A DNA stretch of 64,000 bases from Ignavibacteriota bacterium. Lineage in GTDB: Bacteria; Bacteroidota; Ignavibacteria; UBA10030. Under the pieces are notes generated by a model, which was not told the origin of the DNA, did not search any database, and saw only the letters and a list, made by a program, of their open reading frames with translations. The translations under genes were made by a program, and so were the position numbers. The stretch is taken from NCBI GenBank assembly GCA_963790045.1, contig CAWBMS010000013.1, positions 19,085-83,084 of the forward strand, written 5' to 3'. Below are positions 935-44,690 of the stretch, one piece after another (within the stretch, counting starts at the first letter, position 1; every line of letters starts with the position of its first letter).

Positions 935-1033
935 GAAAATTCTTTCATCAATGTTTTACTACTTATTTCAAAAACAAACTAATGCTAAAAAACGTTCGCT
1001 TATTGACGAATATTTTTAAAACGCAATCCAGCA

Positions 1034-1654
1034 TTATAATGATTTTATGAAATAGGATTCGTTGTTGTACACGGTAGATTTGAATCCCATACGCTTTAAA
1101 AACTGCGTGTGTTCTTTATAATAGGATTTTGTGACAATCGTTTTCACACCGTGCGATTGTAAATACTCTCGTCCTTCTTCAAAAATAAATTTTCCAACTT
1201 TATAATCACGGAATTTCGGAATAGTGTAATTAATCTCGACAACGATGACGCCTTCTTCTTCCTTGCGTGCGACAAAAAGATTTGCCATCGTCTCGTTGCG
1301 CAGCACCATAAAGCAAATACGATTCTCATCAGTGGTAAAACGAAATTCCGGAAAATATTTATGAAGATCTTTTTGATAAAATTTCATGAAACTCTCAACG
1401 ATCTCATCGCCATGATGAATTTGCACGTATTCAAAGTGCTCTCGATGCATCGAAAGATTGATGATCTGCACGATGTTGATGATTGCAAGAATTCCGTTTG
1501 CAAGAATCACCGGAAATGCATCTATCATATCGCCGTAGATTACAAAGGTGAGACATCCAAAAAGATTAATCCACCGAAACCACATCTCACGCTTTACCAT
1601 TAACGAAACCGCAAGAAATGCAGAAGCAAGATATCCGAAAAAGACAATCATCAT
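1034..1654 (-). CDS. membrane-anchored protein with C-terminal GNAT-like acetyltransferase fold (hypothetical)
   Basis: 206-aa ORF. The first ~65 aa are hydrophobic (2-3 TM). The soluble C-terminal half resembles small acyltransferases (VVVEINYTIPKFRDYKVGKFIF). Confidence 0.5.
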   Translation of the reverse strand: MMIVFFGYLASAFLAVSLMVKREMWFRWINLFGCLTFVIYGDMIDAFPVILANGILAIINIVQIINLSMHREHFEYVQIHHGDEIVESFMKFYQKDLHKYFPEFRFTTDENRICFMVLRNETMANLFVARKEEEGVIVVEINYTIPKFRDYKVGKFIFEEGREYLQSHGVKTIVTKSYYKEHTQFLKRMGFKSTVYNNESYFIKSL

Positions 1655-1666
1655 TCTTCCTTTCTC

Positions 1667-2785
1667 TTATTTTCCGAACAATAATTCTTCAACATATCGT
1701 GCAATAGCCGGAGACGATGTCAGTCCGGGAGATTCAATGCCGATTAAATTGATAAAGCCATGCAAGCCGCGTTCAGTTTCATGAACAATCACAAAATCTC
1801 TTGCCGGCGCACCTTTCTTTTGTAACTTCGGACGAATGCCGCTCATATCCGGAACAATATCGTTGTCTGCAATCATCGGCAAAATGCGGCGGATGGATTC
1901 TGCAAACGCATGACGTTTCGATTCATCCACTTGATAATTCAATGTGCGGTCATCGAGATATTCTACATCCGGGCCAAACTTCATTCTTCCACCCAAATCG
2001 ACAAGCGAGTGCACACCGAGTCCTTCGTTTAACGGAACCGGATACACAAGCCGTGAAACTAATTTTGCTTTGGACGGCGTGACGGCAAAATACGAACCTT
2101 TCACATAATTCAATCTGTAATTTGCTTTATCAATATCGATGCCCGCCAATTCTGCAATCATATCGCATTGCAATCCCGCTGCATTGATGACGATTTCACT
2201 TGTGAATGAAGAACGAATGCCGCTTTCATCAATTGTAACTTCATATCCGCCGGAAGACGAATGCAAGCCGACAACATTGCTTCTCTGCTGCACAATACCG
2301 CCGTTGGAAAGTATGGTACGATAAAAATAATCCATCAAGTCATGCACACTCACAATGCCTGTGCGCGGAGAAAAGAGCGAACCGACAGTGCGAATATTCG
2401 GTTCCAATTTTAAAGTTGCCGCAGTATCTAAAAATTCTAACGGTACGCCGTTCGCTGTTCCTGTTTTATAAATCTTTTCCAACTTCGACATTTCTTCCGG
2501 AATCGTTGCAGTAATAATTTTTGTAATGTTCCGGTGCGGAATATTGTTCGCTTTGCAAATCGCATAAAACTCTTCGCGCCCTTCGACACACAATTTTGCC
2601 TTGAGAGAATCTGGTTCATAATACATGCCGCCGTGAATCACTTCGCTGTTACGGCTGGAAGTTTCCATGCCGTACTTTTCATTTTTTTCCAACACAACAA
2701 GCCGCGGATGTTTTTGTGATAATCGTGCGGCAATTGCCAGCCCTACAACGCCGCCGCCGATAATAATTATTTCGAAATCTGCCAT
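1667..2785 (-). CDS. FAD-dependent oxidoreductase (L-2-hydroxyglutarate oxidase / glycerol-3-phosphate dehydrogenase-like)
   Basis: 372 aa with N-terminal IIIIGGGVVGLAIAARL dinucleotide-binding motif; DAO-family layout. Confidence 0.8.
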   Translation of the reverse strand: MADFEIIIIGGGVVGLAIAARLSQKHPRLVVLEKNEKYGMETSSRNSEVIHGGMYYEPDSLKAKLCVEGREEFYAICKANNIPHRNITKIITATIPEEMSKLEKIYKTGTANGVPLEFLDTAATLKLEPNIRTVGSLFSPRTGIVSVHDLMDYFYRTILSNGGIVQQRSNVVGLHSSSGGYEVTIDESGIRSSFTSEIVINAAGLQCDMIAELAGIDIDKANYRLNYVKGSYFAVTPSKAKLVSRLVYPVPLNEGLGVHSLVDLGGRMKFGPDVEYLDDRTLNYQVDESKRHAFAESIRRILPMIADNDIVPDMSGIRPKLQKKGAPARDFVIVHETERGLHGFINLIGIESPGLTSSPAIARYVEELLFGK

Positions 2786-2926
2786 TCTTTAATCCGTTCC
2801 TGAATTATTCCAAGATACAAAAAGGTAGATGAAAACACACAAGAATCTTGATTAATGACTTTTCGCTCCGTATGTTATAGATAATCGTATATCGAAGAAC
2901 AAATTATTAGCAAGAGGAGTAACAGT

Positions 2927-3046
2927 ATGGGAAAAGGCGATTATCGTTCGAAGCGCGGCAAGATTTTTCTTGGAACATTCGGCAAAACACGAAAGCGTAA
3001 AACAAAAGTTTCGACAACTATGAAAAAGCCCGTCGTTCAGAAGTAG
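2927..3046 (+). CDS. 30S ribosomal protein Thx (bTHX), 39 aa
   Basis: Too short for the ORF track. MGKGDYRSKRGKIFLGTFGKTRKRKTKV... closely matches Thermus Thx ([24 protein letters not shown], from memory). GGAG Shine-Dalgarno sits 8 nt upstream and a terminator follows. Confidence 0.8.
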   Translation: MGKGDYRSKRGKIFLGTFGKTRKRKTKVSTTMKKPVVQK

Positions 3047-3066
3047 CATTGTTTTACTTTTTAAAA

Positions 3067-3104
3067 GCATCTGTAGGACAATGCTGTCCACAGGTGCTTT
3101 TTTT
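3067..3104 (+). terminator. rho-independent terminator after Thx
   Basis: gcatctgtaggaca / tgtccacaggtgc stem (13 bp, one bulge, one G-U) followed by TTTTTTT. Confidence 0.7.
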
Positions 3105-3117
3105 ATTTTGATCAGCG

Positions 3118-4365
3118 ATGAAACAATCAGCAGACAACTCCACAAAACATTTCAGCTTGGCACAAACATTTGCCGCGCTGCAGCACCGCAATTATCGCTT
3201 GTGGTTCACCGGACAAGTTGTGTCGCTATTCGGTACGTGGATGCAGGTAACGGCCCAAGGATTTTTAATTTATCAACTCACCAAGTCTCCTGCATTTCTT
3301 GGTTTCGTTGGATTCGCCAACGGCTTACCATCGCTGGTGTTCATGCTGTATGCCGGTGTCATCGCCGATCGTTTTCCACGCCGCACGTTGCTGTTAACCA
3401 CACAGACGATGATGATGGTGCTTGCGTTCATTCTTACGATCCTTACATTTTTCAATCTCATTGCACCGTGGCATATCATTGTGCTCGCGTTTCTGCTCGG
3501 CATCGCGAATGCTTTTGATGCGCCCGCTCGCATGGCATTTATTCCGCAATTAGTACCAAAAGAACGATTGACCAATGCGATTGCACTGAATGCAATGATG
3601 ATGAACACCGCCACAACGCTTGGCCCCGGCATCGCCGGTGTTATCTATGCCACCATGGGACCAGCTTGGTGCTTTGCTTTCAATGGCATTTCATTTCTTG
3701 CGGTCATCGGAGCTTTATTAATGATCAAACCGCCGATACAGCAAATTCAACACAGTGAAGGATCGACATTTTCCAAACTCAAGACAGGCATTTCGTATGT
3801 GCTTCATACACCGACTATTCGCACACTTGTTCTGATGGTCGGCGCAACAAGTTTATTCGGGATGTCGATGGGCACATTGATTCCAGCATGGAGCGTTAAA
3901 GTTTTGCATGGCGATGCAGCAACGAACGGTTTGCTCCAATCGGCACGCGGCATCGGCTCGCTCATCGGTGCATTCGTCATTGCTTCAATAGGACACATGA
4001 AAATTCGCGGTAAGATGGTCACATTCGGTTCATGCTTCCTGCCAGTGTTTTTTATCTTGTTTGCACTAACTACATGGCTGCCGCTTTCATTCGTGTTCAT
4101 CGGGTGTCTGGGATTTGCATCAATCTTTATTGTGAATGATGCCAACGCACTCGTAACATCGACGGTACCGGAAAATATCCGCGGCCGTGTGATGAGCGTG
4201 TACAGCATGTTATTCTTCGGTTCGATGCCAATCGGCGCATTGATGTACGGCTCACTTGCCGAACGATTCGGGGAAGTTTCTACTTTAATTTTTAGCGGTG
4301 GATGTTTAACGCTTATTGCTCTGGCGGTGTGGACGTTTGCTCCGACGATTCGGTCGTTGGAATAA
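3118..4365 (+). CDS. MFS transporter (EntS/MFS_3-like)
   Basis: 415 aa, about 12 predicted TM segments. The N-terminal HRNYRLWFTGQVVSLFGTWMQ motif is typical of this MFS subfamily. Confidence 0.85.
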   Translation: MKQSADNSTKHFSLAQTFAALQHRNYRLWFTGQVVSLFGTWMQVTAQGFLIYQLTKSPAFLGFVGFANGLPSLVFMLYAGVIADRFPRRTLLLTTQTMMMVLAFILTILTFFNLIAPWHIIVLAFLLGIANAFDAPARMAFIPQLVPKERLTNAIALNAMMMNTATTLGPGIAGVIYATMGPAWCFAFNGISFLAVIGALLMIKPPIQQIQHSEGSTFSKLKTGISYVLHTPTIRTLVLMVGATSLFGMSMGTLIPAWSVKVLHGDAATNGLLQSARGIGSLIGAFVIASIGHMKIRGKMVTFGSCFLPVFFILFALTTWLPLSFVFIGCLGFASIFIVNDANALVTSTVPENIRGRVMSVYSMLFFGSMPIGALMYGSLAERFGEVSTLIFSGGCLTLIALAVWTFAPTIRSLE

Positions 4366-5779
4366 TATTTTTTTTCTGTGGAGTATTTTTTTCTAATTTC
4401 CCCCATCCCCACCACATCAACGCCATAAATAATCCCGGATACATCGGTTCTACACCGAAGAAATATTTTGGATTTCCATTCACGAGATTCAATTGCCCAT
4501 AGACCAAACTGAACGTAGAAATAAACCAGCCGTTCACCATCGCACCCAGCGCATACGTAGCAGGAATTTTTAATCGATCAAAATAACTTGAGAGTACCGG
4601 AATAAGAAGCCCGGGAATAATGCACGTGCCGATGGTGTACCATAGATTGACGACCGATGGTACCAACAACGCAAGAGCAACAGAAACAACAGCAGAAATG
4701 ATCAATCCAATTTTTGTCCACCGACGCACCAATTCCGAATCGTGCGGAGCGTTCTTCCATCTCCCAACAATATCTTTGCCGATGGTAATTCCCGAAATCA
4801 ACGTTAAGCTGCTTAAGGTGGACATAATGGTAGCAAGCATGCCGATATAAAATAATCCTTTGGCAATTGCCGGCAACGCAACTTCGGCAAGCATCGGATA
4901 AGAAAACATCGGCTGCGAGAGAACGGGCAATGCTGCACGCGCATACAATCCGGCGGAAGTTGTCATAAAATCAAACACGAGCCAGAATAAAATAGAGATG
5001 AGAATTCCGCGCTGTGCTGTTTTACCATCCTTCGCCGCATAACAGCGTTGATAAAACGCCGGATCGACCAACGTCCAGAGCGCAATGAAAAACCACACAG
5101 CAATATATTGCCAGCTATTGCCGCCGTGCCATGTAAGATGTAATTCCGGTACGTGCAAGCGAATAAATTCCATTCCACCGAATTTGAAATACGAAAAAAT
5201 GACAGCCATCGCGAAGCCGAGAAACATCAACACAAATTCAAATGCATTTGCCCAAACATCAGAACGGAAACCGCCGTTGTATAAATAGATAATCGTGATA
5301 AACGTCGCAATGAGTATGGAAAGCGTAAGATTGATTCCAAAAATTAATTGCACCAACACACCCAACATCAACACATACGCAGCGGGAGTAACGAGAAAAA
5401 ATGTTAACACTCCGCCGACGAGTGCCGTGCGTCGATCATACACCTGTTCCAACTTGTCAGGAATGGTGTAGAGGTTGGTTGCACGAATACGCTTTGCAAG
5501 AAACAGCGCAAAGATCAATGCAAAAATATAATATGGAACACCGAAAACGACCCAGTTGGAAATGCCGTACTTGTAGGAATATTCTCCCACACCAAGAATA
5601 CCGCCGTACCAAGTCGAAACTAATGTCGCAACAAACATCGGCAGCGTGAGTGTGCGCCCTGCAAGTAAATATTCATCATTATCCGATTTTTGTTTTCGTG
5701 ATGCGCGGAATCCGATAAAGACAACCGCAGCAAAGTATGCAACGATTAAAACAATATCGATAATGGATAAATGAACCAT
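4313..5779 (-). CDS. sodium:solute symporter (SSS/SSF family)
   Basis: 488 aa, polytopic, with YLLAGRTL...STWYGGILGVGE N-terminal SSS signature. Its start is 19 nt downstream of the thiamine pyrophosphokinase stop on the same strand. Confidence 0.85.
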   Translation of the reverse strand: MVHLSIIDIVLIVAYFAAVVFIGFRASRKQKSDNDEYLLAGRTLTLPMFVATLVSTWYGGILGVGEYSYKYGISNWVVFGVPYYIFALIFALFLAKRIRATNLYTIPDKLEQVYDRRTALVGGVLTFFLVTPAAYVLMLGVLVQLIFGINLTLSILIATFITIIYLYNGGFRSDVWANAFEFVLMFLGFAMAVIFSYFKFGGMEFIRLHVPELHLTWHGGNSWQYIAVWFFIALWTLVDPAFYQRCYAAKDGKTAQRGILISILFWLVFDFMTTSAGLYARAALPVLSQPMFSYPMLAEVALPAIAKGLFYIGMLATIMSTLSSLTLISGITIGKDIVGRWKNAPHDSELVRRWTKIGLIISAVVSVALALLVPSVVNLWYTIGTCIIPGLLIPVLSSYFDRLKIPATYALGAMVNGWFISTFSLVYGQLNLVNGNPKYFFGVEPMYPGLFMALMWWGWGKLEKNTPQKKNIIPTTESSEQTSTPPEQ

Positions 5780-5798
5780 GTAAATGATGAAAAACGGT

Positions 5799-6461
5799 TT
5801 ACGAATTATGAATTTTTAGTTTATTAAATGAATGGGCGATAAAAACGATCAGCTTACCGGTGCGGAATTTAACTGTGACCATTTCTGAAGTGGAAACATT
5901 GCTCGTGCTTTCTCGCACGCCAAGTCCGAGTGATTCGTTCTTTAAATTCCATTTGAGTCCTGAAGTCGTAACACCGCTGCACAACGTCAACGGTAATAAA
6001 GAAATTGTTGCTCCGACAGGCAATTGGATGACCGTTTCATTCTCGACAGAAAAATATTTGCCATATTGATCGACGAAGGTAATATCGATGGAATCCGAAA
6101 ATTTCGATAACGCGCTGAAGTTGCCAAATTCATGATCCGCTCTGCCGCCTGTTGCACCAAAGATCACTGCTTCGGAAAAATGATGCGCCACTGCGTACGA
6201 TAATGCTTTTTCCAAATCGGTACTGTTTTGTTCTCGAATTTGTTTAATCGGCACTTTGCTGAAGAGCTTCAACGTCTTCGCTGTTATTGAATCCAGATCA
6301 CCGAGAATCATTTGCGGCACGATAGACAATGCGGCTGCAGCATTCGCACCGCCATCGGCACAGACAAGAATATCGTTCGGCTCTTGATACTGTTTGAGAA
6401 TCTGTTTTGTCGGCGATGTGCCGTTCGCCAGAATAATGATCCGTTTGTTCATATCGCACAT
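5799..6461 (-). CDS. thiN: thiamine pyrophosphokinase
   Basis: MNKRIIILANG...VCADGGAN...ILGDLDS...STDLEKAL...FGATGGRADHEF... matches the TPK catalytic plus B1-binding domains. The track ORF extends to 6674, but that extension overlaps the upstream TBDR stop. The real start is ATG 6461 or 6452. Confidence 0.8.
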   Translation of the reverse strand: MCDMNKRIIILANGTSPTKQILKQYQEPNDILVCADGGANAAAALSIVPQMILGDLDSITAKTLKLFSKVPIKQIREQNSTDLEKALSYAVAHHFSEAVIFGATGGRADHEFGNFSALSKFSDSIDITFVDQYGKYFSVENETVIQLPVGATISLLPLTLCSGVTTSGLKWNLKNESLGLGVRESTSNVSTSEMVTVKFRTGKLIVFIAHSFNKLKIHNS

Positions 6462-6651
6462 AAAAATAAAAACGCCGCCAGATCGAGGGGAGGCAACAAC
6501 CCAGCGGCGAATTGTACATAACGGAATAAATCCGTACGCACATACAATAAACGCATAGCCACCATAAAGGTTTCTCCGTCTCGCATTATCTTCTCTTTCT
6601 CTGTCACGCTGTGTAATGTACGCAACAGAGAAAGAAAAACACAGAAAGAAA

Positions 6652-8922
6652 TTATAATTGCAGCGCCATACCAATAATGTAATTGCGTTCGGCAGCAGGA
6701 TAGAATTCCTGCCCTTCGCCAGTCATCGTATATAATCGATTTAACAAATTGTGCACTTCACCGCGCACGATAAGATGCACGCCGGCACCAAGCGTGAACC
6801 GATACAATGCAGATGCATTCAGTACCATATACGCATCATTTTTTTCGAGATCATTTTTAGTATTGTCCGTATAAAATGCACCGACATATTTTGCATCGAT
6901 TGAGGCACTCCAAGCATCAACAGTTTGAGTCAACCGAAGGTTCGCCATAAAATCCGGTGAGCCGGCAATCGGATTGCCATCCAAACTATGGCGATACGTG
7001 ATGCCATTCACGATGCTATCAGCAATCGCATAGCTGATGAGGCGATTGTGAGAAATCGTTGCATTGCCGCTCACACTGAATCCGTTATTGAACGATGTTT
7101 GCGCTTCAAGTTCGATGCCAATGTGCCGCGTGCGGTCAGCATTGCCCATCACCGGTTCTCCGAAAATATCAAGCGCGCCACTTTTAATGAGTTCATCTTT
7201 AAATTCCATCCAGAAAATATTTGCCGCCAGCAGCGAATATTCATTACGGTATGCCGCACCAATTTCTAAATCGTACAAATGTTCCGGTTTGGCAATCGGA
7301 TTATTGAAATTGTATTTCACGGCACCGCCTACCGTATCGGCTTCAAACTGCGGCGTGCTGCCCCAGATGGTTTCTTCCGCAGAATATAAATCTATCAATC
7401 GCGGCTCGCGAGACGTGTATGCGAGATTGATGTAAGAATTAAAATGTTCATCCACATTATAATTGACGCCGACACGTGGATTGACAAAGAAATACGGGAC
7501 AGCAAAATCATCATTATAAAATTTTTCATTGCTCAGTGTATAGCGATCATAGACAAATTGAAGATCGGTCATTAATGTCAGATCGTCGTTCAATCTATAT
7601 AATTCATTACCGTAGAACGAAACGATATCTTTTCCGCCGTTGTATTTATAGATATAATAATCAGGATCGTAATTCGACGGAAAGTTTTCTGCATACTGAA
7701 TTTTTCCCCAATGCAGCGAACGATGGAAACGCAATTCCGCACCAAGCGTCAGCACACCGGTGTTGTGATCGATTTCCAACCGCGGCAGCCATCCGAATTG
7801 TTTATCACCGACATACGCGCGCACAAGCGAATTGATCGGATCCGCAGCACCGACATATCCGTTTGCTGAATCCCAATGAATCGCCGATGCCGTCAAACCA
7901 CTTCCATCATAGTCATAATATCCATCGCCTTGAATATAAAAAAATGTATTGGAGAGTGTGATCTTCGGTGTCAATCGCCATTCGTTCAATAATTCAAAAT
8001 GCGGCTGGGAAAATGATTCTGCTTCTTGCGCACGACGATTCGTGGCATAGGTAACAGAATCTTGCGCATCGTTCAATTCAAAATAATTGTAATTCGTACG
8101 ACGAAGATTTAGGTCGTTGTTATAAAATTTCGGGATGCCATTATATACTAATCCATCGGTGAACGGACCGCCGTAAAAATGTATGCGTGTCGTCATGTTC
8201 GCATCCAATCGTTCGACACCGAAAAAATAAGAATCAATTTCGTCCCAGGATTTATCGCGATACCCATCGGTAGAAAGTTTGCCAAGCCGCCCGTAAAACA
8301 TATATTGACTATCGACAAGACCGGAGTTGAATGTTGCGGAATATTTCCGCGTAGAAAGCACAACAGTATTTGTTGAACCGTATTCCTGAAATCCCAAACT
8401 GCTTTCAAGCAAAACACTCGGCTTTGGCTGGAACGGAATTGCAATCAAATTCACAGAGCCGCCGATTGCCGGCGGTCCGTAAAACGCGCTGCCTGCTCCG
8501 CGCTGCACTTGAATGGTGGATGTGCTTCCCAGCAAATCCGGAAAGTCGATCCAGTACACGCTAAAATCTTCCGGATCATTCTGCGGCACGCCATTCACCA
8601 TCACAGAAAGCCGCTGCTGTTCAAAGCCGCGTAAATTAATGTAGCTGTACCCGCCGCTTGCATTTCCATTTTCAGAATAAAATGTGATGGACGGAAGTTC
8701 GGATAACAGTACAGGAACATCCTGCACAGTATATTGCTGCTGGATTTGCGATCTGGATAAATTAGAAAATGTTACGGGCGATAAACGCTCCGTTGCCTGT
8801 GTTGCCGCAACGGTTGTAACAGGTGCTTCGTGATAGACAGTGTCACGATCGATTTTCTCTTGCGCAGTGGCAATTGAAAATCCTATGGTGACGGCTGCAA
8901 GAAGATGTGAATAGTTCAGCAT
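6652..8922 (-). CDS. TonB-dependent outer-membrane receptor (predicted thiamine/precursor receptor)
   Basis: 756 aa with signal peptide, plug domain (INLRGF..VMVNGVPQND) and a beta-barrel ending in a terminal aromatic/L residue. AAGGAG Shine-Dalgarno present. A TPP riboswitch lies immediately upstream. Confidence 0.9.
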   Translation of the reverse strand: MLNYSHLLAAVTIGFSIATAQEKIDRDTVYHEAPVTTVAATQATERLSPVTFSNLSRSQIQQQYTVQDVPVLLSELPSITFYSENGNASGGYSYINLRGFEQQRLSVMVNGVPQNDPEDFSVYWIDFPDLLGSTSTIQVQRGAGSAFYGPPAIGGSVNLIAIPFQPKPSVLLESSLGFQEYGSTNTVVLSTRKYSATFNSGLVDSQYMFYGRLGKLSTDGYRDKSWDEIDSYFFGVERLDANMTTRIHFYGGPFTDGLVYNGIPKFYNNDLNLRRTNYNYFELNDAQDSVTYATNRRAQEAESFSQPHFELLNEWRLTPKITLSNTFFYIQGDGYYDYDGSGLTASAIHWDSANGYVGAADPINSLVRAYVGDKQFGWLPRLEIDHNTGVLTLGAELRFHRSLHWGKIQYAENFPSNYDPDYYIYKYNGGKDIVSFYGNELYRLNDDLTLMTDLQFVYDRYTLSNEKFYNDDFAVPYFFVNPRVGVNYNVDEHFNSYINLAYTSREPRLIDLYSAEETIWGSTPQFEADTVGGAVKYNFNNPIAKPEHLYDLEIGAAYRNEYSLLAANIFWMEFKDELIKSGALDIFGEPVMGNADRTRHIGIELEAQTSFNNGFSVSGNATISHNRLISYAIADSIVNGITYRHSLDGNPIAGSPDFMANLRLTQTVDAWSASIDAKYVGAFYTDNTKNDLEKNDAYMVLNASALYRFTLGAGVHLIVRGEVHNLLNRLYTMTGEGQEFYPAAERNYIIGMALQL

Positions 8923-8940
8923 CGTATTTCTCCTTTCAGA

Positions 8941-8980
8941 AATAAAAAAGCCGTTTCCATAGGAAAAAGAAAACGGCTTG
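8941..8980 (-). terminator. riboswitch expression-platform terminator
   Basis: Minus strand reads AAGCCGTTT-(loop)-AAACGGCTT followed by TTTTTATTT, 18 nt before the TBDR ATG. The left arm CCGTTTTC can alternatively pair with GAAAACGG of the aptamer P1 3' strand, forming an antiterminator. Confidence 0.65.
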
Positions 8981-8999
8981 AAGAAAGAAGAGCTGTTCT

Positions 9000-9106
9000 C
9001 CGTTTTCCTACGCCGGTATAACCCGGTTCAGGTTCGCAGGGTTTGATCTCAGTCCCGATCTCATCAAGTTCTTCGTCTGATGAAACCGTCAGGACACCCC
9101 TAACGG
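9000..9106 (-). promoter_or_regulatory. TPP (THI-box) riboswitch aptamer
   Basis: Minus strand reads CCGTTAGGGGTGTCCTGACGG...GGGACTGAGATCAAACCCTGCGAACCTGAACCGGGTTATACCGGCGTAGGAAAACGG. The GGGGUG, CUGAGA, ACCCU, GAACCUGA and CGUAGGAA blocks and a closing P1 (CCGTT/AACGG) are all present. Confidence 0.9.
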
Positions 9107-9140
9107 ATGAATAAATATGTTAATGTAAAAGAACTACTTA

Positions 9141-9169
9141 AATATACAGCGATGCAGAATCGATGTCAA
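9141..9169 (-). promoter_or_regulatory. sigma70-type promoter for the riboswitch operon
   Basis: Minus strand reads TTGACA-N17-TATATT, about 35 nt upstream of the aptamer. Confidence 0.45.
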
Positions 9170-9225
9170 GAAAAATATTTGCAGCAAGGGTGTTTCAATA
9201 ATCTTTTCAGCGGCGAGTAAAAGAA

Positions 9226-9254
9226 TTGACATTGAAATAATTAAACAGTAGAAT
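9226..9254 (+). promoter_or_regulatory. sigma70-type promoter pointing into repeat array 1 and the kinase gene
   Basis: TTGACA (9226-9231), 17-nt spacer, TAGAAT (9249-9254). Confidence 0.45.
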
Positions 9255-9384
9255 TCTGTCAAGATATTAAACGCGTTCACATGTTTTCCGGGTCAAGAAG
9301 TTTATGGTGGATGTTGAAAAGAAATTTTGCTGCAGATTCCCTTCTGGAATCTGCCTTTATCTCCCTTCGTTGTTCATACCAACA

Positions 9385-9782
9385 TGCTCCGTGGACGAAC
9401 TTTGTCTTTTTCCGGATCGATAAAATGCTCTGCGGAACGAGAGAAATGGTGTCGGCAATGACACAAATGGCGTTAGCAACGAGACAAATGACGCTGGCAA
9501 CGACACAAATGACGTTGAGAATGACAGAAATGGTGTCGGGAATGAGAGAAATGGCGTTGGGAACGACACAAATGACGTTGGGAATGAGGGAAATGGCGTG
9601 GGGAATTGAATAAATGCCCCGGCGAAAGGAATACATGGACTGCTGAAAGGAATAATTGTGCTGCCGGAAGGAATAATTGGCGTTGATTATAGTATTTTTG
9701 ACATACTGAACGGTACTTTGGTGCAGGGAATGGAATAATTGGTGATGGTAATGGTGTTTTGGAGAATGGAAAGGGAAAAAAT
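9385..9782 (+). repeat. array 1: about 19 tandem 21-nt units (degenerate minisatellite, consensus GGCGTTGGGAACGACACAAAT)
   Basis: Units start at 9385, 9406, 9427, ... 9700 in exact 21-nt phase, then 9721, 9741 and 9761. Conserved columns are GGAAYGA-N3-AAAT followed by G. All six reading frames are open because the unit has no stop codon. Confidence 0.85.
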
Positions 9783-9889
9783 GAGGTAGTCAAACAATTT
9801 ATGGTTCGAAATAAAAATAGAAATTGACTGGATATAGGCGATGCGTTGTTACAGGAGTTGGCACCAATATTAACTTCTAATAAGCAAAT

Positions 9890-10720
9890 ATGGTAAAATA
9901 TAGTGTAGTTAAAAAAATAGGACGTGGAGGAAATGGGATAGTTTATCAAGTAACAGATGAGAATGGAAATTTTTTTGCTAAAAAGGTACTTGAAAATATA
10001 AGATCAAAAAAAGCATATCAAAGGTTTAAGGACGAAGTAGAGGTTTTATATGGGCTTAAAGAAAGAAAGGGGGTAATTGAAATTATTGATGCTTATTTAC
10101 CTAATCAGTTTTCTAAACATGATAAACCCTATTATGTTATGCCTCTTGGGATAAGTTTGAAAGATTACATTAAAAACTTACACGATGAACAAATAATAAA
10201 TTTAGTGATCGAACTTTGTGATACTCTAGATTTTTTGCATTCTAAAGATATAACCCATAGAGATATAAAACCTGAAAATATATTGGTTATTGACAACAAA
10301 CCAGTCTTCTCAGATTTTGGTCTAGCTAATTTTCCCAAAAAGGTAAGAGTTTCAAGCCAAAACGAAAACATAGGTCCTAAATGGACAATTGCACCGGAGA
10401 TGAAAAGAATCTCATCAACAGCTGAGTTTAAAAAAGCAGATATATATTCTTTTGGTAAAACATTATGGATGCTAATAACCAAACAATGGTGGGGTTTTGA
10501 AGGTCAGTATATTCCCAATAGTTCAATATCGGTTGACAATTACGTCGAAATGATAATAAATAAACCGCACTTAGCCAGTAAATGGTATTATCATTCAATT
10601 GTGCTGTTAAATCAACTTTTAACTGAATCTACTGACAACGACCCATTAAAAAGACCTGATGCAAAATCATTTACAGATAAACTCAAATATTGGTATACTA
10701 GCCTGCGACGATTATTTTGA
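9890..10720 (+). CDS. Hanks-type serine/threonine protein kinase (stand-alone catalytic domain)
   Basis: GRGGNGIVY Gly-loop, AKK lysine, HRDIKPENIL catalytic loop, DFG, APE, DIYSFG and KRPDA are all present. The gene is visibly AT-rich compared with its flanks. Confidence 0.85.
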   Translation: MVKYSVVKKIGRGGNGIVYQVTDENGNFFAKKVLENIRSKKAYQRFKDEVEVLYGLKERKGVIEIIDAYLPNQFSKHDKPYYVMPLGISLKDYIKNLHDEQIINLVIELCDTLDFLHSKDITHRDIKPENILVIDNKPVFSDFGLANFPKKVRVSSQNENIGPKWTIAPEMKRISSTAEFKKADIYSFGKTLWMLITKQWWGFEGQYIPNSSISVDNYVEMIINKPHLASKWYYHSIVLLNQLLTESTDNDPLKRPDAKSFTDKLKYWYTSLRRLF

Positions 10721-11297
10721 GAGAAACCCTTATGAGTGGATTGACGCATTAAAAAGAATTTTTCCTGTTTCAATTCCAAACAGCTGTTCTTGGCAAAAAT
10801 TTGAGGATATTTATAGAATTCTGAAAATATTATGTGAACGTTACGATAATTTAAATCATTGCTTTTATCCTCGTTCAGGGGGTATGGACTTTGATAAAGT
10901 TGAACTTGATAAAACAAAAGAATTTTTGATTATAAACAACAATGAGATAATTAAACCCAAAATTCTATACTTTGAATTTATGAACGATTTTGATTGGAGT
11001 TATTTTAGACTGGAAGTTGAGGAAATTGAACCAATATTTAAAGAAAACTTGCACGAATTTGAAGAAAGAATATTTATTGACAATGAGGGGAATTATCTAT
11101 CAGAAGAATCTCCCAGGTATAGAGAATGTTCAAGATTTGTAAAGGGAAGTTTTCTGTTAACCAAAAAAACTTCAAAGATAAATCAATTATCTGGAAGACT
11201 TGATGCGTATAATGCATTGCATAACAAAATGAATAATACTAAATATAAAGATTTTCTTTTTGAATTGATTAATAAGTTGAAAAGCAGTTCTTCGTAG
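10659..11297 (+). CDS. hypothetical protein; probably the C-terminal module of the kinase gene, displaced by a +1 frame change
   Basis: 212-aa ORF overlapping the kinase 3' end by 62 nt in the +1 frame, with only one ATG before residue ~75. No motif recognised. Same AT-rich composition as the kinase. Confidence 0.5.
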   Translation: MQNHLQINSNIGILACDDYFERNPYEWIDALKRIFPVSIPNSCSWQKFEDIYRILKILCERYDNLNHCFYPRSGGMDFDKVELDKTKEFLIINNNEIIKPKILYFEFMNDFDWSYFRLEVEEIEPIFKENLHEFEERIFIDNEGNYLSEESPRYRECSRFVKGSFLLTKKTSKINQLSGRLDAYNALHNKMNNTKYKDFLFELINKLKSSSS

Positions 11298-11426
11298 GAA
11301 GTTCATCGGGTAAAATCCCGCCCTGCATGTCATCTCGTTTTATCTTGTTCCCAAGTTCTTTTACCCGCTGCGACGGGGCATGGGGCAAGGAGTTAAAATA
11401 AATTACACACAACAAGAAAAGTGAAT

Positions 11427-11768
11427 ATGGAAAAAAGTATTTATCAACTGCGGATCTATGAAGTATCTCCCGATAAAAAGGCCGCGTTTCATAACCGATT
11501 TAAAAATCATGCGCTTCGAATTATGAAAAAATATAATTTCAATCCGGTTGCATTATGGGAAAGTTCTTCCGTTGTAAATTTTGAATTCATTTATATTTTG
11601 AAGTGGCCGGATATTGAAACGATGGAACGGCAATGGAAATTATTTTTAGCAGACGAAGAATGGATAAACATTAAAAGAACAATGGATCAAGAAATCGGGG
11701 AACCGGTGCTCCGGGTAACCAGCAGGGTGCTTGAGCATATCGAATATTCTCCGGCATATTCAATATGA
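11427..11768 (+). CDS. NIPSNAP family protein
   Basis: MEKSIYQLRIYEV...FHNRFKNHALRIMKKY..., a typical NIPSNAP/dimeric alpha-beta barrel N-terminus. The GTG at 11421 is an alternative start. Confidence 0.75.
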   Translation: MEKSIYQLRIYEVSPDKKAAFHNRFKNHALRIMKKYNFNPVALWESSSVVNFEFIYILKWPDIETMERQWKLFLADEEWINIKRTMDQEIGEPVLRVTSRVLEHIEYSPAYSI

Positions 11769-11979
11769 TTTATACTTGATAAAGTTCCAGAGTACATAAA
11801 ATATTGACAACAACGCGCCCAACCAGGCCTATCGGCAGGCAAGGGTTGGATGCAAGTGGGAAAATAAAAAATTATATAATACATTTGATCAAGATAACAT
11901 ATACAATCCACGCACTCGATGATCCACAGGGAACACGGGAAAAATATACAGGAAGAAAAACAAAGAAAAGGTCACAGCG

Positions 11980-12318
11980 ATGAAAACAACAGACAACTTG
12001 TTAGAAGAACCGATGAAATGGTATCATTACATTGCAGGATTTTTTGCGGGAGCATTTTTAACGAATGCGGTTCCGCATTTCGTGAACGGAATTTCGGGAA
12101 ACGCTTTTCCGTCACCATTTGCTCATCCGCCCGGTCAGGGACTTTCATCTCCGTTGGTAAATGTTTTATGGGCATTATTGAATTTGCTTGCAGGATATCT
12201 CCTTTTTAGAGTGAGCAGAATAAATTCAAAACGTAAATCAGGATTATTCATATTTTTTGTAGGAGTGGTACTGATTAGTATTATGAGCAGTATTGTGTTT
12301 GTGGATAAAGTAAAATAA
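11980..12318 (+). CDS. small membrane protein (hypothetical)
   Basis: 112 aa with three hydrophobic segments. Confidence 0.55.
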   Translation: MKTTDNLLEEPMKWYHYIAGFFAGAFLTNAVPHFVNGISGNAFPSPFAHPPGQGLSSPLVNVLWALLNLLAGYLLFRVSRINSKRKSGLFIFFVGVVLISIMSSIVFVDKVK

Positions 12319-12490
12319 ATGTTCTTCTTGTTCCCAAGCTCAGTTATCTGTGAGTGACGGAATGATTTGCAATTAGAAAAATAGTTTTATGAGCGGCATT
12401 GATGAAGAAAAATTAAAAATGTTATATTGTATTTGTATGAACGTTAAGCGTAACAGGAAAAACACTCAACAGTAGAAACTACTCAAGCAC

Positions 12491-12971
12491 ATGAAAAAAA
12501 CATTATTCTTCATCTTCGTTCTTGTGGCATCCTTCTGCGGAGGGTTCGCGTTCAAGACCATTAGTTCAAATCACTCTACTACGGAGACCTCTATGAAAAA
12601 AGTAACGGGCATCGGCGGCATTTTCTTCAAATGCAAAGACCCTAGTAAAGATGACGGAATGGTACCACACTCATCTTGGCCTAAACACAAACCCATGGGG
12701 AGCAACGTTCGAATGGTATGAAGGCGCAGACAGCACAAAAAAAGGACAAACACAATGGACCCCGTTTTCCGAAACGACCAAATACTTTGAACCTTCGACA
12801 AAAGATTTTATGATCAATTACAGGGTAGAAAACCTGGAAGCACTCATTGAGGAATTAAAAAAGAACGGCGTTACCATTGTGGATACTCTTGAAACTGCAG
12901 AGTATGGTAAATTTATACATATCCTTGACGCAGAAGGTAACAAAGTTGAATTGTGGGAACCCAAAGATTGA
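12491..12971 (+). pseudogene. VOC (glyoxalase/bleomycin-resistance) family lipoprotein, interrupted by a +1 frame change near 12650
   Basis: Frame 1 gives signal peptide ...KKVTGIGGIFFKCKDPSK. Frame 2 gives MTEWYHTHLGLNTNPWGATFEW...VELWEPKD. Skipping g12650 produces a continuous VOC fold. Confidence 0.75.
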
Positions 12972-13090
12972 GTTTGAAAAGTTAGGCATCCAACTCAGGA
13001 GCAAGACGACAAAATGATCGACAGGTAAAACGCCTGCCGCAAACAAGTTCGCAATCAGGAAAATTGTTCGATGAGATGCAACATTGAAAC

Positions 13091-13208
13091 ACAGCAGGAG
13101 ACTGTCTTTAAATTACGTTTAACGGTAGGACAGGCATTCTTGCCTGTCCATTATACAACAAAAACACAAACAAGTATTTAAGCAACGATATATATCGTCG
13201 CCTGCTGT
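13091..13208. repeat. nested inverted-repeat element in a convergent intergenic region
   Basis: Outer arms are acagcaggagac (13091-13102) and gtcgcctgctgt (13197-13208), matching 11/12. They enclose a perfect 9-bp hairpin ggacaggca-ttct-tgcctgtcc (13128-13149) and the palindrome acgatatatatcgt (13185-13198). Confidence 0.5.
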
Positions 13209-13249
13209 TTGTTTAAAGATCACGCTTCGACAAGCCCAGTGTGACTTTT

Positions 13250-14143
13250 TCAACCGATAAAAAATCCTACGGCAAGCAACACAGGAGTTGAAATATTGAT
13301 GACGACATTCAATCCCATCGAAGGAATCAAAGCAGGGATATTATTTGCGTTGCGAAATGCTCCTTGAAACGCTATCCACGCGGGAATAATTGTCAGCAAC
13401 GCGAGCAAACTAAACTTCGGCATCAATCCAAACATCACACCAACAACAACCGTAACATACGTCAGCAATAAAAAAGTACCGTAGATAATTGCGCTGGCTT
13501 TCCGCCCAATCGTAATCGGAAAATGTTTTCGCCCGATGGTAATATCTGCATCGACATCAGGAAATTGATTGAGCAGCAGCAAGTCGCTGACTAAAAATGT
13601 CGGAATGAGCGAAGCAACAAATGCAATCCACGTGTAAGAACCTGTTAACGAAAAGTGTGTTCCCATCACCATGAGAATACCGAAACCCAATCCCGGTGCA
13701 ATTAAACAAGAAATCGGATTATACGCCCACCAAACGGTATATGTCACAAGTAAAATTAAACCGAAAAATCCGAGCGGCAGCAACAGCCAGCCGCGCAGCC
13801 AGACAAAATAAAATCCGATCATAACAACCACAACAAGTGACACGATAGCGAGATACAATGTTTGCTTCTTCACTTCAGGATGTGATGGCAATGTTCCGCT
13901 GCCGCCGCTGAATGGTGTTCGCTGCGTTTTGTTGTCGAGTCCGCTGATAAAATCAAAATACTCATTAAACACATTGACGCAAATGTGGCTTGCAACCGCA
14001 CCGATGAGAATTAATAGAATTTGAATCCAGTTGATTTCGTGTGTTTGCCAGTACGCTGTTCCGACGCCGACAGCGACACACGCGGGCGTCAGAATCAAGA
14101 ACGGTACCCTCATCGGGCCAAGCAAGGATTTCAATGTTTGCAT
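13250..14143 (-). CDS. UbiA-family prenyltransferase (MenA-like)
   Basis: 297 aa, about 8-9 TM segments, NEYFDFISGLD Asp-rich motif. Confidence 0.8.
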   Translation of the reverse strand: MQTLKSLLGPMRVPFLILTPACVAVGVGTAYWQTHEINWIQILLILIGAVASHICVNVFNEYFDFISGLDNKTQRTPFSGGSGTLPSHPEVKKQTLYLAIVSLVVVVMIGFYFVWLRGWLLLPLGFFGLILLVTYTVWWAYNPISCLIAPGLGFGILMVMGTHFSLTGSYTWIAFVASLIPTFLVSDLLLLNQFPDVDADITIGRKHFPITIGRKASAIIYGTFLLLTYVTVVVGVMFGLMPKFSLLALLTIIPAWIAFQGAFRNANNIPALIPSMGLNVVINISTPVLLAVGFFIG

Positions 14144-14223
14144 TCGACTCTCCTCTTAAAAGTTTGATTGGTCATTGAATAAATATTTTTCTTGTTCAGA
14201 TACTCACAGTTAAATTTTCTCGA

Positions 14224-14661
14224 TTACACGTTGCTATTCTTCGCTACGTTATTGATATCCACGTTGCGAAAGATTTTCGTTCCGTACCATAGCACGACCG
14301 CTTCTATCACCAACAGCGCACCGAACGATCCTTCATATAAAATTTTCCAGAGAAGCGGAATGGATTGAAAGACAGGAATTGAGATAGAAAAGAAGTGATC
14401 GTAGATATTATAGCATAATGCTGCGCCGATGGTGCCTTGCAGCACGATATTCCCCTGCCGGGCTTTTTCTTTTTCAATCATAAACGCAGCAATAATCGGG
14501 ATGATGGTAAATATGAAAATGATTGGAAGATGATCGGCAACAAAATAGAACGTGCCTAATTTTTCATGTGTGTAAGCATTTCCGGCAACCAAGAGCATGT
14601 GGGCAATCACAAGCCGCGAAATTATTTTCGATATCTTTGCAAGATGTTCTGTGTTGGCCAT
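14224..14661 (-). CDS. membrane protein (hypothetical)
   Basis: Start taken at MANTEHL, because the longer track ORF would overlap the upstream gene. Four hydrophobic segments. Confidence 0.55.
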   Translation of the reverse strand: MANTEHLAKISKIISRLVIAHMLLVAGNAYTHEKLGTFYFVADHLPIIFIFTIIPIIAAFMIEKEKARQGNIVLQGTIGAALCYNIYDHFFSISIPVFQSIPLLWKILYEGSFGALLVIEAVVLWYGTKIFRNVDINNVAKNSNV

Positions 14662-14671
14662 AATTATGTTT

Positions 14672-15820
14672 TTACTTTGAAGACGATATATTTTGAATAA
14701 CGCGCCGTGCGCGCACAAAACTCTTTTCTAACGATGCATCGTAAAACGGCGAAGCCGGATCGAAACTGCCATAGCGAACTCTGCCGATGCTATGAATAAA
14801 CAATTTATTCCCTAAATACATTCCCACGTGAATAATATGCTCCAGTGCTGTACCCTCTGCCTTCCGTCCGAAGAATAATAAATCGCCTTTTTGAAGATTC
14901 TGAAAATCATTTCCAACAGCAATGGCAATTCCTTCTTCCGCTTGCTGGCTTGCATCGCGCGCAAGTTCTTTGCCGTTCAAACGGTACACGGTTTTCGTAA
15001 ATCCGGAACAATCAACTCCTTTAGTAGAAGTTCCTCCCCACAAATATGGAATGCCGAGCAATGCCTTGGCAGATTTTTCAAGGTTACTCGCTGTTAATTG
15101 CCGGCTGTTGTTCCATTCGTCGTAATCCTGTACAAGCGAACTTTGCACATATCCTCTTCTTCCATCGGCAAGCTCGACTGCTGTCCAGCCATTTTTTGTT
15201 TCATGGGATTTGAGTACACACAACGCAACAACATCGCACATAGGAAAAGATTCTATCGACGGTTCCTCACGCACGACGCCGAATGTTTCCGTGACAATAA
15301 CTTTTGGCGCATCATTCCAGATTTTTGTTTCTGCATTATCGAACCGTTGCATTGCTTCTGCCGAAAGCCAGCCAAGATATTTATCCGGCGACTGCACATA
15401 AAAATAATTTTGCGAACGCTTTAATATTTTGACCGTCATACCCATCAGCACTTGCGATGAAAGCTCCGCCGCTTCGCCCGGTTTGGTGCGCATGTTTCCA
15501 ACACTCACGATGATAACACCGAAATATTTTGCGCCAACAGCTTCATCCGGTAACACGGCGATGTGGTCAACAACAGATTTGTGTGTTTTTTCTTTTACTG
15601 TTTCGATGAGTGATTTTTTTGCAGCAGAATTATCAACTTCGCCGCGAAGTTCAATACTTTCTGTCATCTCATTTCCCGTGACATCAAACACTGCCGTGCG
15701 GTGATCCGGTGCATATTTTTGTTGAACTTCATGAAGGATGTTTTCCCACGCCGCCTGCTGTGCCATAAGCGTGAGAGGAATTAGAAGGAAAATAAAAAAC
15801 GCTGCTTTTGTTTTTGTCAT
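14672..15820 (-). CDS. NlpC/P60 (C40) peptidase with SH3-like domains
   Basis: Signal peptide. C-terminal YLWGGTSTKGVDCSGF...HVGMY supplies the catalytic Cys and His. Confidence 0.85.
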   Translation of the reverse strand: MTKTKAAFFIFLLIPLTLMAQQAAWENILHEVQQKYAPDHRTAVFDVTGNEMTESIELRGEVDNSAAKKSLIETVKEKTHKSVVDHIAVLPDEAVGAKYFGVIIVSVGNMRTKPGEAAELSSQVLMGMTVKILKRSQNYFYVQSPDKYLGWLSAEAMQRFDNAETKIWNDAPKVIVTETFGVVREEPSIESFPMCDVVALCVLKSHETKNGWTAVELADGRRGYVQSSLVQDYDEWNNSRQLTASNLEKSAKALLGIPYLWGGTSTKGVDCSGFTKTVYRLNGKELARDASQQAEEGIAIAVGNDFQNLQKGDLLFFGRKAEGTALEHIIHVGMYLGNKLFIHSIGRVRYGSFDPASPFYDASLEKSFVRARRVIQNISSSK

Positions 15821-15896
15821 TCTGTTTTACTTTTCGCAGATATTCATGTTTGCAGAAATATAACAGAAATCTTCAGAGTGTGCAATAAATTATGTT

Positions 15897-16550
15897 TTAA
15901 GAATGAGGATTTAGCTGTTCAAGTTTTAAGTGCAGCCATTCAACAGAATCGTGCAAACTTTCTTCGCTAATCGTGTGGCCGATAGGATATTCTTTATACA
16001 CCAGCGGTGCTTGTGTTTTAGACAGCAGTTCGTTTGCGCGCATTCCAAAGCCAACCGGCACAACGGGATCGTACGTTCCGTGTGCTATGAAGAACGAAGT
16101 GTTTTTCAATTCATTCCATTTATAATCAATGCCGACATTCTCCGGCAGCAATCCGCTGTGAATAACGGCACCGCGAATTTTTTCCGGATGCGCGAGCGCC
16201 AGCACTAGCGACATCATGGCACCGATGCTGAATCCGTATAAAAATATTTTTGATGGATCAATGGAAAATTTATCCGGTAATTCATCGATGACCTGCAGTA
16301 CCTGCTGGTAACTCTGCTGCAACTGCCCTGCATCGATATTTCCCAAATCGTTCAAATCGAACCACGTATAGCCGCCGTACGGAAATTGCATCGGTGCGCG
16401 CACGCTGAAAATTTGAAACCGCGGATCGAGGTACGGCGTCAATCCCAGCAGATCGTTTTCATCGGTTCCTCTTCCGTGAAGAAGAATTAACACGGGATGA
16501 GAATCCGACAGCGTTGTCGGTTTCGGAGCAGCTTTGTAAAACAAACTCAT
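15897..16550 (-). CDS. alpha/beta hydrolase (phospholipase/carboxylesterase family)
   Basis: ILLHGRGTDENDL...LYGFSIGAMM (GxSxG)...GTYDPVVP...GHTI. Confidence 0.8.
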   Translation of the reverse strand: MSLFYKAAPKPTTLSDSHPVLILLHGRGTDENDLLGLTPYLDPRFQIFSVRAPMQFPYGGYTWFDLNDLGNIDAGQLQQSYQQVLQVIDELPDKFSIDPSKIFLYGFSIGAMMSLVLALAHPEKIRGAVIHSGLLPENVGIDYKWNELKNTSFFIAHGTYDPVVPVGFGMRANELLSKTQAPLVYKEYPIGHTISEESLHDSVEWLHLKLEQLNPHS

Positions 16551-43803: not shown

Positions 43804-44076
43804 CTATTTTTTGTCAATTTTTAAATAAGCGCCAAACAATTTATTGGATACTTCGGATTGTGCACCAAACCATTCTGTAAGGATTTTAATATGATCCAAG
43901 GTTTCGTTTCGTTGTTTCTCGTCAACGGTTTTTTCAAAACGACGCGCATATATTTGTAAAGAACTTCCTTTTGAATATAATTCTCCCAAATAATCTTTTA
44001 TTTCGTCGCCAAACAAGAACTCATAATCTTTTGAGTTGTGTAGAAATTTTGTCAATATTTCATCAGAGAGATTCAT
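43804..44076 (-). CDS. hypothetical protein (AT-rich orphan, 90 aa)
   Basis: ORF only; no motif recognised. Lies about 195 nt downstream of array 2 on the same strand. Confidence 0.4.
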   Translation of the reverse strand: MNLSDEILTKFLHNSKDYEFLFGDEIKDYLGELYSKGSSLQIYARRFEKTVDEKQRNETLDHIKILTEWFGAQSEVSNKLFGAYLKIDKK

Positions 44077-44271
44077 AAAACCTGCGACTCTAATTGAAGA
44101 GATATAATCTTTTACTGAGAGAAAGACAGAATAACGTTTTTCATATAAATCGAGTCACCAGCGTAACTTCCATTTCGCCATTTCCCATATACATTTCCCC
44201 AAAAAGCGGCGGATACGGCATTTATGCACCATTTTGGCATTCTCCGTTAAATATATTGGTTTTTTCTGGGT

Positions 44272-44628
44272 ATTTATTCAGTCCGGCGGTCTATTTATGT
44301 CGTCCGTTGATATATAAATACCATCCGGCAGTGTTTAAATACGCTTCAAAAGCGCATTTATTCCTTTCGGATGAATAAAAATACCTTTCGGGAGAGTAAA
44401 AATACGTTTCGTTAGAGCATTTATTCCATTCGGCAGGGTATTTCTGTCGTCCGGCGTGGCATTTCACTCGTTCGGAAGAGCATTCCACTCGTCCGTTAGT
44501 CGATTTCAGTCATCCGGCGAAGCATTTCTCTCGTCCGTTAGTCCATTTCAATCGTCCGGCGGAGCATTCCACTCGTTCGCAAGAGCATTTGAATCGTCCG
44601 TAGGGACATTTTAACTGTCTCGTCCTGA
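44272..44628 (-). repeat. array 2: 17 tandem 21-nt units, same family as array 1 but on the opposite strand
   Basis: Plus-strand units run atttattcagtccggcggtct ... atttcactcgttcggaagagc / attccactcgtccgttagtcg / atttcagtcatccggcgaagc ... in exact 21-nt phase (17 x 21 = 357 nt). Their reverse complement reads NNNNNNCCGGACGANNGAAAT. Confidence 0.85.
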
Positions 44629-44690
44629 AAAAAGTTGACAGGTAAAATAGTGATTTATAAGTATTGGTTCATTATGATTGTTTCGTAATT

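Follow-up and report, generated by a model that had tools for sequence, protein, structure and literature searches.

The DNA described here is a 64,000-nt stretch of contig CAWBMS010000013.1 from an Ignavibacteriota bacterium (the window), in which a row of direct 21-nt repeats, array 1 (9414-9790, +), stands in front of a defence-type Ser/Thr kinase gene, and a twin of it, array 2, lies ~35 kb away on the minus strand. We suggest, with a probability of about 0.35, that array 1 offers one protein a series of evenly phased binding sites along intrinsically curved DNA, in an iteron-like or centromere-like layout, which would gate foreign genes. An earlier note on this DNA, written from the letters alone, had interpreted array 1 as a leader of translation-initiation-like modules and had offered four possible roles for it. 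Phased protein-binding sites fit best of the four, given the 14-bp box, the array-specific spacer, and the two-turn phase described below, although the binding itself is something that we infer.

Two arrays with a common box

Read in register, array 1 consists of ~17-18 units of 21 nt, not the ~19 counted in the earlier note, which had placed the array correctly. Tandem Repeats Finder reports period 21 at 9434-9606 with 8.2 copies, 76% matches, and 0% indels, a further period-21 tract in array 1 at 9608-9680, and also higher-order periods of 42 and 63 nt. The same run found array 2, in which the minus strand reads CGGACGAGTGAAATGCTCTTC and similar. The earlier note had not linked the two arrays, although its label "Array 1" suggests that a second one had been noticed, and array 2 is the most informative comparison for array 1. 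Both have the same layout, in which eight canonical units precede a zone of eight or nine AT-richer ones, and both are oriented toward the next gene downstream.

What the two arrays have in common is a 14-nt asymmetric box, GRAYGA-NNN-AAATG. The box consensus, which makes up the first 14 nt of the unit, is identical at 12 of 14 positions between the arrays (GAACGAGAGAAATG vs. GGACGAGTGAAATG), whereas the 7-nt spacer is identical at only 1 of 7 (GCGTTGG vs. CTCTGCC; Fisher P = 0.003 for the contrast). Unit positions 3, 5-6, and 11-13 are invariant in both arrays, and the variable positions within the arrays are distributed non-uniformly (P = 0.01 for array 1 and 0.10 for array 2). Furthermore, the 16 canonical units contain no indels, despite 59 positions that differ from the consensus. 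That the box is conserved while the spacer is specific to each array points to a constraint on the box, either on the DNA or on the RNA. The box pattern GRAYGANNNRAATG has 11 matches in the window, all of them in the two arrays, where 0.72 would be expected by chance, and a position weight matrix scan for further boxes above the array score range found none beyond the two arrays.

The likeness between the arrays is one of unit type and two-zone layout, and not of unit-by-unit orthology. An alignment with MAFFT had suggested that the arrays are collinear unit by unit, and this was rejected, as an offset scan gave an identity of ~0.49 at all shifts from -84 to +84 nt. The length of array 2 is identical, with no gaps, in four other contigs or assemblies (L155, L156, L157, and L159), so this is not a hypervariable locus. 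With this constant length, and with units that are only ~76% alike, a contingency locus or variable-number tandem repeat was also discarded.

How might such an array work? Since 21 bp is exactly two helical turns, every box is presented on the same face of the duplex. A single sequence-specific protein, whose gene lies elsewhere, would bind the boxes head to tail and cooperatively, and the naturally curved array would wrap with the protein into a nucleoprotein complex. This complex would lie between the upstream promoter or gene and the horizontally acquired cargo genes, and would gate or silence transcription into the cargo. The arrays probably arrived with the foreign DNA. We favour binding sites on phased DNA because of the contrast between box and spacer together with the exact two-turn phase; since there are only two copies and no binder was identified, the mechanism is one that we infer.

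Curvature, translation starts, and transcription

A dinucleotide wedge model with the parameters of Bolshoy and Trifonov was used to predict the curvature of the DNA. When 189-bp segments of the 64 kb are ranked by curvature, the top 15 all fall within the two arrays, and the ratio of end-to-end distance to contour length over 378 bp is 0.26 and 0.32 for the arrays vs. 0.89 for the background. The curvature disappears when the period is set to 20 or 22 bp, and column-permuted arrays are less curved (P = 0.02 each). However, perfect 21-bp arrays built from random genomic 21-mers are equally curved in ~30% of cases. Because such arrays can be as curved, and because periods of 20 or 22 bp abolish the effect, the curvature is a consequence of the two-turn period, and we do not take it as a sign of selection on anything but the period.

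The earlier note had assigned an in-frame ATG to the units of array 1 in general. An ATG at a fixed position is present in 11 units (9414-9624); the next three units have TTG, and the later ones have none. The distal half of array 2 has ATA, TTA, or AAA instead of the ATG. For the canonical units, the predicted energy of pairing with the anti-Shine-Dalgarno (anti-SD) sequence lies between -1.5 and -4.3 kcal/mol (array 1) or close to -3.2 (array 2), compared with a mean of -1.8 for all ATGs of the window and with -5 to -9 for about half of the real genes. In array 1, a value of about -6 is reached by 5-6 units only (9582-9666). The Met-rich open reading frame (ORF) that had been described exists, at 9281-9613. 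The unit-to-unit ratio of nonsynonymous to synonymous differences (pN/pS) in this frame is 2.2 in array 1 and 1.08 in array 2, where the frame has repeated stops. The weak anti-SD pairing, the loss of the ATG in array 2, and the non-coding character of the Met frame led us to reject a ribosome decoy or a multi-start leader, and they do not support the translation-initiation-like modules of the earlier note; ribosome mimicry is unlikely.

No reading frame is open in both arrays. The pN/pS ratio is lowest in sense frame +1 (N-D/E-x-N-G-V-G), with values of 0.37 and 0.64 and with three stops in array 2, and it is also low in antisense frame 0. The variability of the units (9435-9602 and 44432-44599) shows a weak 3-nt periodicity (P = 0.03), in that 31 of the 59 changes fall on every third position, counted from position 1, and the 21-nt repeat may have descended from a seven-codon coding repeat. 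A protein-coding seven-codon repeat in the present arrays was rejected on account of the absence of a shared open frame and the Met-frame ratios; the arrays are non-coding. One combined alternative is that array 1 is translated as a Met-rich repeat protein or multi-start leader, or else that it is an RNA antitoxin for the kinase, as in type III toxin-antitoxin (TA) systems. It has in its favour the 11 in-frame ATGs, as well as the order of promoter, tandem repeats, and defence-type gene, which resembles a type III locus. However, the twin array precedes an unrelated gene, and the Met frame and the SD pairing behave as just described. The comparison of the two arrays largely refutes this alternative, which we consider hardly credible.

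Array 1 is probably transcribed, since a strong promoter lies upstream of it and no terminator follows. Sites with at least 11 of 12 promoter matches number only four on both strands of the 64 kb (128 kb of strand), and the motif at 9226-9254 is among them. It is situated 43 bp inside the left edge of the islet described in the next section, back to back with the minus-strand promoter at 9169-9141. No terminator-like site is found between array 1 and the kinase ATG at 9890 (and none in 9790-9889), and no good kinase-proximal promoter was found. Transcription through array 1 from the 9226 promoter is thus plausible. The hairpin at 9332-9354 is also flagged as terminator-like because of its CTTTATCT tail; it might act as an attenuator or mark where a short RNA ends. 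The promoter, as a motif, the 9-bp hairpin, and the missing terminator all agree with the earlier description.

Another explanation, favoured by the strong promoter, by the lack of a terminator, and by the orientation that both arrays share with the flanking transcription, is that the arrays are transcribed repeat leaders or decoy RNAs. The 14-nt motifs, single-stranded in a transcript from the 9226 promoter (array 1) or from read-through of rsmI (array 2), would bind many copies of an RNA-binding protein or nuclease; the effect would be to titrate that protein, or to set how stable the downstream mRNA is or how well it is translated. The RNA of array 1 is purine-rich, and its predicted folding is not more stable than that of shuffled sequences (z = +0.38 for array 1 by itself and +1.22 for the entire leader), which suits accessible motifs, and the invariant AAAU is what we take to resemble the cleavage motifs of some endoribonuclease toxins. 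On the other hand, folding differs between the arrays, with z = -3.07 for array 2, the source of which is inverted unit variants in its distal half, and the arrays share no structural RNA property. The earlier note had called for an RNA fold analysis, and folding of both arrays gave no consistent signal. No Rfam family matches the arrays at gathering thresholds or even at E <= 1; a conserved RNA structure was rejected on the folding z-scores and this result. Furthermore, no sigma-70-like promoter of its own was found for array 2, both downstream genes are damaged, and a period of exactly two DNA turns is left unexplained by a role of the RNA. We regard the transcribed leader or decoy as possible, though rather unlikely.

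Small CGUU/AAYG hairpins can be seen by eye in about half of the array 1 units, and in another register in array 2. In each array, 3-4 of the 8 canonical units lack GGA. Since the units do not conserve this motif, CsrA-type binding is unlikely, and so is the CsrA-like sponge that had been among the four roles. A CsrA/RsmA sponge RNA was also rejected for the lack of recurrent hairpins, of a terminator after the array, and of an Rfam match.

A strain-variable islet and its damaged genes

The contig L158, from another assembly and reached via a window protein, is 99.5% identical to the window over 1-9182 and 99.9% over 13244-16250. Between these, in place of 9183-13243, it has only 15 nt, TTTTTTATTGATGGT. 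Thus, the promoter, array 1, the kinase gene, and three small genes form a strain-variable islet. Collinearity with L145, a more distant relative, also ends at 9180. The G+C content of the islet is 31-39% vs. ~45% in the flanks, and no target duplication is visible at its edges. Relatives with 75-87% identity in the TonB-dependent receptor have no array at this locus; to judge by the relatives of this receptor, the organism belongs to the Bacteroidota and is of the Ignavibacteria type. The coordinates of the features are collected in Table 1.

Table 1. Features of the window discussed in the text
Feature	Position	Strand	Remarks
Array 1, degenerate unit (n = 1)	9414	+	
Array 1, canonical 21-nt units (n = 8)	9435-9602	+	consensus GAACGAGAGAAATGGCGTTGG
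Array 1, AT-richer units (n = ~9)	9603-9790	+	one is 20 nt long; GAAAGGAATAATTG type
Array 2, twin of array 1	44264-44615	-	same repeat-finder run
Array 2, canonical units (n = 8)	44599-44432	-	consensus GGACGAGTGAAATGCTCTGCC
Array 2, AT-richer units (n = 8)	44431-44264	-	
Sigma-70-type promoter toward array 1	9226-9254	+	near-consensus TTGACA-N17-TAGAAT; motif match
9-bp hairpin	9332-9354	+	GCAGATTCC-CTTCT-GGAATCTGC, U-rich tail; 60 nt upstream of array 1
Strain-variable islet, 4,061 bp	9183-13243		promoter, array 1, kinase gene, NIPSNAP gene, 112-aa membrane ORF, glyoxalase-like gene
Defence-type Ser/Thr kinase gene	9890-11297	+	ORFs 9890-10720 and 10659-11297 (212 aa); frameshift near 10700-10706
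Damaged gene downstream of array 2	43804-44170	-	ORF 43804-44076 (90 aa), C-terminal 60% of a ~150-aa family
IS3-family insertion sequence	44616-45948	-	25-nt inverted repeats, AAC target duplication; abuts upstream end of array 2
TonB-dependent receptor gene	6652-8922	-	
Thiamine pyrophosphate (TPP) riboswitch	8988-9111	-	68.6 bits; in front of TonB-dependent receptor gene
Promoter of TPP riboswitch and TonB receptor	9169-9141	-	as good as the one at 9226-9254

The kinase gene matches Pkinase (E = 5e-31) and the mad6 and PD-T4-6 entries of PADLOC. Its two ORFs correspond to one protein, a kinase with a C-terminal domain, in the homologues P0001 and P0002, and so the gene is frameshifted, either as a pseudogene or through an assembly error. 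The kinase homologue of Neptunitalea is also fragmented; no array lies upstream of it, and an association of the array with this kinase family was therefore rejected.

The ~150-aa family to which the gene after array 2 belongs has an N-terminal transmembrane helix and 115 remote homologues, one of which is fused to a PIN domain (PIN_8). Upstream, the frame of this gene runs on through an in-frame TGA at 44155-44157, a stop codon that short-read contigs have as well, and the gene lacks the transmembrane part. An AlphaFold model of the 90-aa ORF was too poor for a fold search (predicted local distance difference test score, 58). A 90-aa ORF that lies beside a kinase homologue in L144 is unrelated to it, and a link between the two cargo genes was dropped. 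Both downstream genes are thus damaged, the kinase gene by a frameshift, and the array 2 gene by a nonsense codon and a 5' truncation. The earlier idea of a leader that controls the kinase is weakened by this damage, and also by the fact that the gene behind the twin array is unrelated to the kinase; transcription through array 1 is still plausible.

Before the insertion of the IS3 element, array 2 started ~95 nt past the stop codon of an rsmI-like gene (46045). The terminal inverted repeat of the element, read in the array sense, ends in CAGGACGAGACA, which matches the array box GGACGAGAG. The element may have inserted here because the boxes look like its own termini.

Searches for related arrays covered plasmids, phages, genomes, metagenomes, and viral contigs. 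BLAST of the array gave no match in 72,556 plasmids and no match in phages. A three-unit pattern found 23 loci in metagenomes, none of them demonstrably of the same family, and had 0 matches in viral contigs, where a two-unit pattern matched 7 lone sites and no array. The two-unit pattern in genome contigs gave, among the matches listed, mostly unrelated perfect repeats, including what is probably a coding repeat (HDHSSHS) in Prochlorococcus and, in Endozoicomonas, elements that combine a palindrome with repeats. Note that the matches of these scans are not independent evidence, because the pattern itself defines the shared features.

Could array 1 then simply be a decaying minisatellite without a present function, a 21-nt repeat that came with foreign DNA, possibly from a seven-codon coding repeat, and is drifting? 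This explanation is favoured because the array is absent from close relatives, namely the 99.5%-identical strain and all relatives examined, and because the cargo genes are damaged. The lack of related arrays in the metagenome, plasmid, and phage searches, the pseudogene-like neighbours, and the insertion sequence at the edge of array 2 are consistent with it, as are the 42- and 63-nt periods, which are typical of unequal crossing-over, the weak 3-nt periodicity, and the low pN/pS in sense frame +1. However, neutral drift does not explain why the box is conserved at 12 of 14 positions and the spacer at 1 of 7, nor does it account for the absence of indels or for the same two-zone layout and length in both arrays, and no frame is open in both. 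We consider drift alone a doubtful account, though one with a real chance of being right. If it is right, the value of the finding is smaller: a 21-bp repeat can mimic a string of ribosome start sites without being one. Even so, the locus documents a 4-kb strain-variable islet with a PD-T4-6-like kinase.

Several further observations concern other repeats and the neighbourhood. An uncultured Bacteroidetes metagenome-assembled genome contains near-perfect 21-nt arrays of GGATGAGCCAAATGTACATTT in 10-12 copies, at L022 4683-4892 and L054 6238-6489. Each lies within the loop of a long inverted repeat (AGCGGGCTGCCGCTACTATCGGGGCTAGG... / ...CCTAGCCCCGATAGTAGCGGCAGCCCGCT), a layout that suggests a repeated mobile or structured element. 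Endozoicomonas sp. ALC020 (L008, L029, L083, L091, L096, L108, and others), and also L130, L137, L139, and L089, contain dispersed elements with a hairpin of the ATTCCCGCCTTCGCGGGAAT type, which is directly followed by 4-8 tandem 21-nt units that open with the hairpin's own 3' arm (GGGAATGACGAGAATGAAGCC). A GGAAT arm like that of these elements is also found in the hairpin ahead of array 1 (GATTCC-CTTCT-GGAATC), but there it is 60 nt from the array. Within the islet, a 21-nt direct repeat at 11343-11363 and 12326-12346 (TCTTGTTCCCAAGTTCTTTTA and TCTTGTTCCCAAGCTCAGTTA) flanks the NIPSNAP gene and the 112-aa ORF, and the glyoxalase/VOC-like gene at 12491-12971 (+) appears to be split into the overlapping ORFs 12491-12721 and 12651-12971. 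The split is probably another frameshift of the islet, or an assembly error. To the left of the islet, the TonB receptor gene is followed in relatives by genes for thiamine pyrophosphokinase and an SSF transporter, which suggests that the region is a thiamine-uptake locus.

Comparison with known systems

A number of observations weigh against a phased row of protein-binding sites. No candidate binding protein was found, and no Rep, Par, or small DNA-binding gene is adjacent to the arrays. Both arrays share the sense of the flanking transcription units, which a role as RNA predicts and a role as DNA does not, and array 1 has the strong promoter upstream and no terminator after it. Only two examples of the array exist, and these without unit-by-unit orthology; no homologous array was found in the relatives, plasmids, phages, or metagenomes searched. 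The arrays of random 21-mers described above belong here as well. Finally, the present-day function may be relaxed, since both cargo genes are damaged.

The resemblance of array 1 to the type III TA systems (ToxI, CptI, and TenpI) is in the order of promoter (9226-9254), array, and gene (from 9890), all on the plus strand. The antitoxin repeats of type III systems are 31-62 nt long and are present in 1.9-5.6 copies (Table 2 of PMC3401426). The criteria for such systems further include a short palindromic terminator between the repeats and the toxin gene, and a toxin that is a ToxN, CptN, or TenpN endoribonuclease (PMC3401426). In contrast, array 1 has ~17-18 degenerate copies of 21 nt, whereas type III systems have 2-6 that are nearly identical. 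The array and the gene are not separated by a terminator, and the sole hairpin (9332-9354) precedes the array. What follows array 1 is a kinase gene, and the gene of array 2 belongs to an unrelated family with a transmembrane helix. Type III units fold as pseudoknots, whereas the z-scores of our arrays (+0.38 and -3.07) come from folding tools that do not predict pseudoknots. A type III antitoxin, one of the roles raised in the earlier note, therefore fails in unit length, copy number, terminator, and toxin family. A broader idea is that the arrays are the defining cis element of an undescribed accessory-gene cassette of Ignavibacteria-like bacteria, composed of a promoter, a transcribed 21-nt array, and a defence gene. 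The repeat RNA or the phased DNA would be a multivalent sensor or decoy that restrains toxic effectors other than RNases, for example a Ser/Thr kinase. We think this quite improbable; if true, the cassette would be a functional analogue of type III TA control with a different chemistry.

The sponge RNAs CsrB/RsmZ and CrcZ are similar to array 1 in having many copies of a short motif in one RNA and a strong promoter. Array 1 is unlike them in that it has no conserved GGA in hairpin loops, no A-rich motif of the CrcZ type, no Rfam match, and no terminator that would define a discrete small RNA, and in its rigid 21-nt spacing. Curved DNA with phased A-tracts before or inside promoters, a target of nucleoid-associated silencers, is resembled by the arrays in that they have the strongest predicted curvature in the window and lie beside AT-rich foreign genes. 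In the arrays, however, the curvature is a by-product of the 21-bp period, and what is conserved is a specific box and not A-tracts alone.

Iterons (R6K, P1, F, and RK2) and the parC centromeres of R1 and pSK41 are built from direct repeats of 17-22 bp at a spacing of two turns, in which the core is conserved and the spacer varies, next to a stretch that is richer in AT. One explanation for this likeness would be that the arrays are the relic or active iteron origin, or the partition centromere, of an integrated plasmid-like or integrative and conjugative element (ICE)-like element. The classical layout agrees with this, and TGAGRG, found in three units of array 1, is similar to the TGAGnG motif of iterons. 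However, no ParA/ParM or small adaptor gene was found adjacent to either array, no Rep family was matched by the neighbours (kinase, NIPSNAP, TonB receptor, RsmI-like protein, and IS3 transposase), the 17 units in one run far exceed any one iteron cluster, none of the 72,556 plasmids searched with BLAST matches, and housekeeping genes such as valS lie between the arrays. Such an origin or centromere is improbable. The arrays also differ from iterons such as those of P1 incA, and from the centromeres, in being chromosomal and in lying downstream of the promoter rather than overlapping it. What they share with them is asymmetric direct repeats of ~20 bp, here with a period of exactly 21 bp and 0% indels, two-turn spacing that places many copies on a single helical face, a core that is conserved beside a variable spacer, an adjoining AT-richer stretch, and a location on mobile DNA. 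If it is true that a protein binds the boxes, then the arrays would be a chromosomal, islet-borne counterpart of iteron and centromere arrays that gates acquired defence-type genes in a poorly studied phylum, and they would provide a handle for finding the binding protein and further islets.

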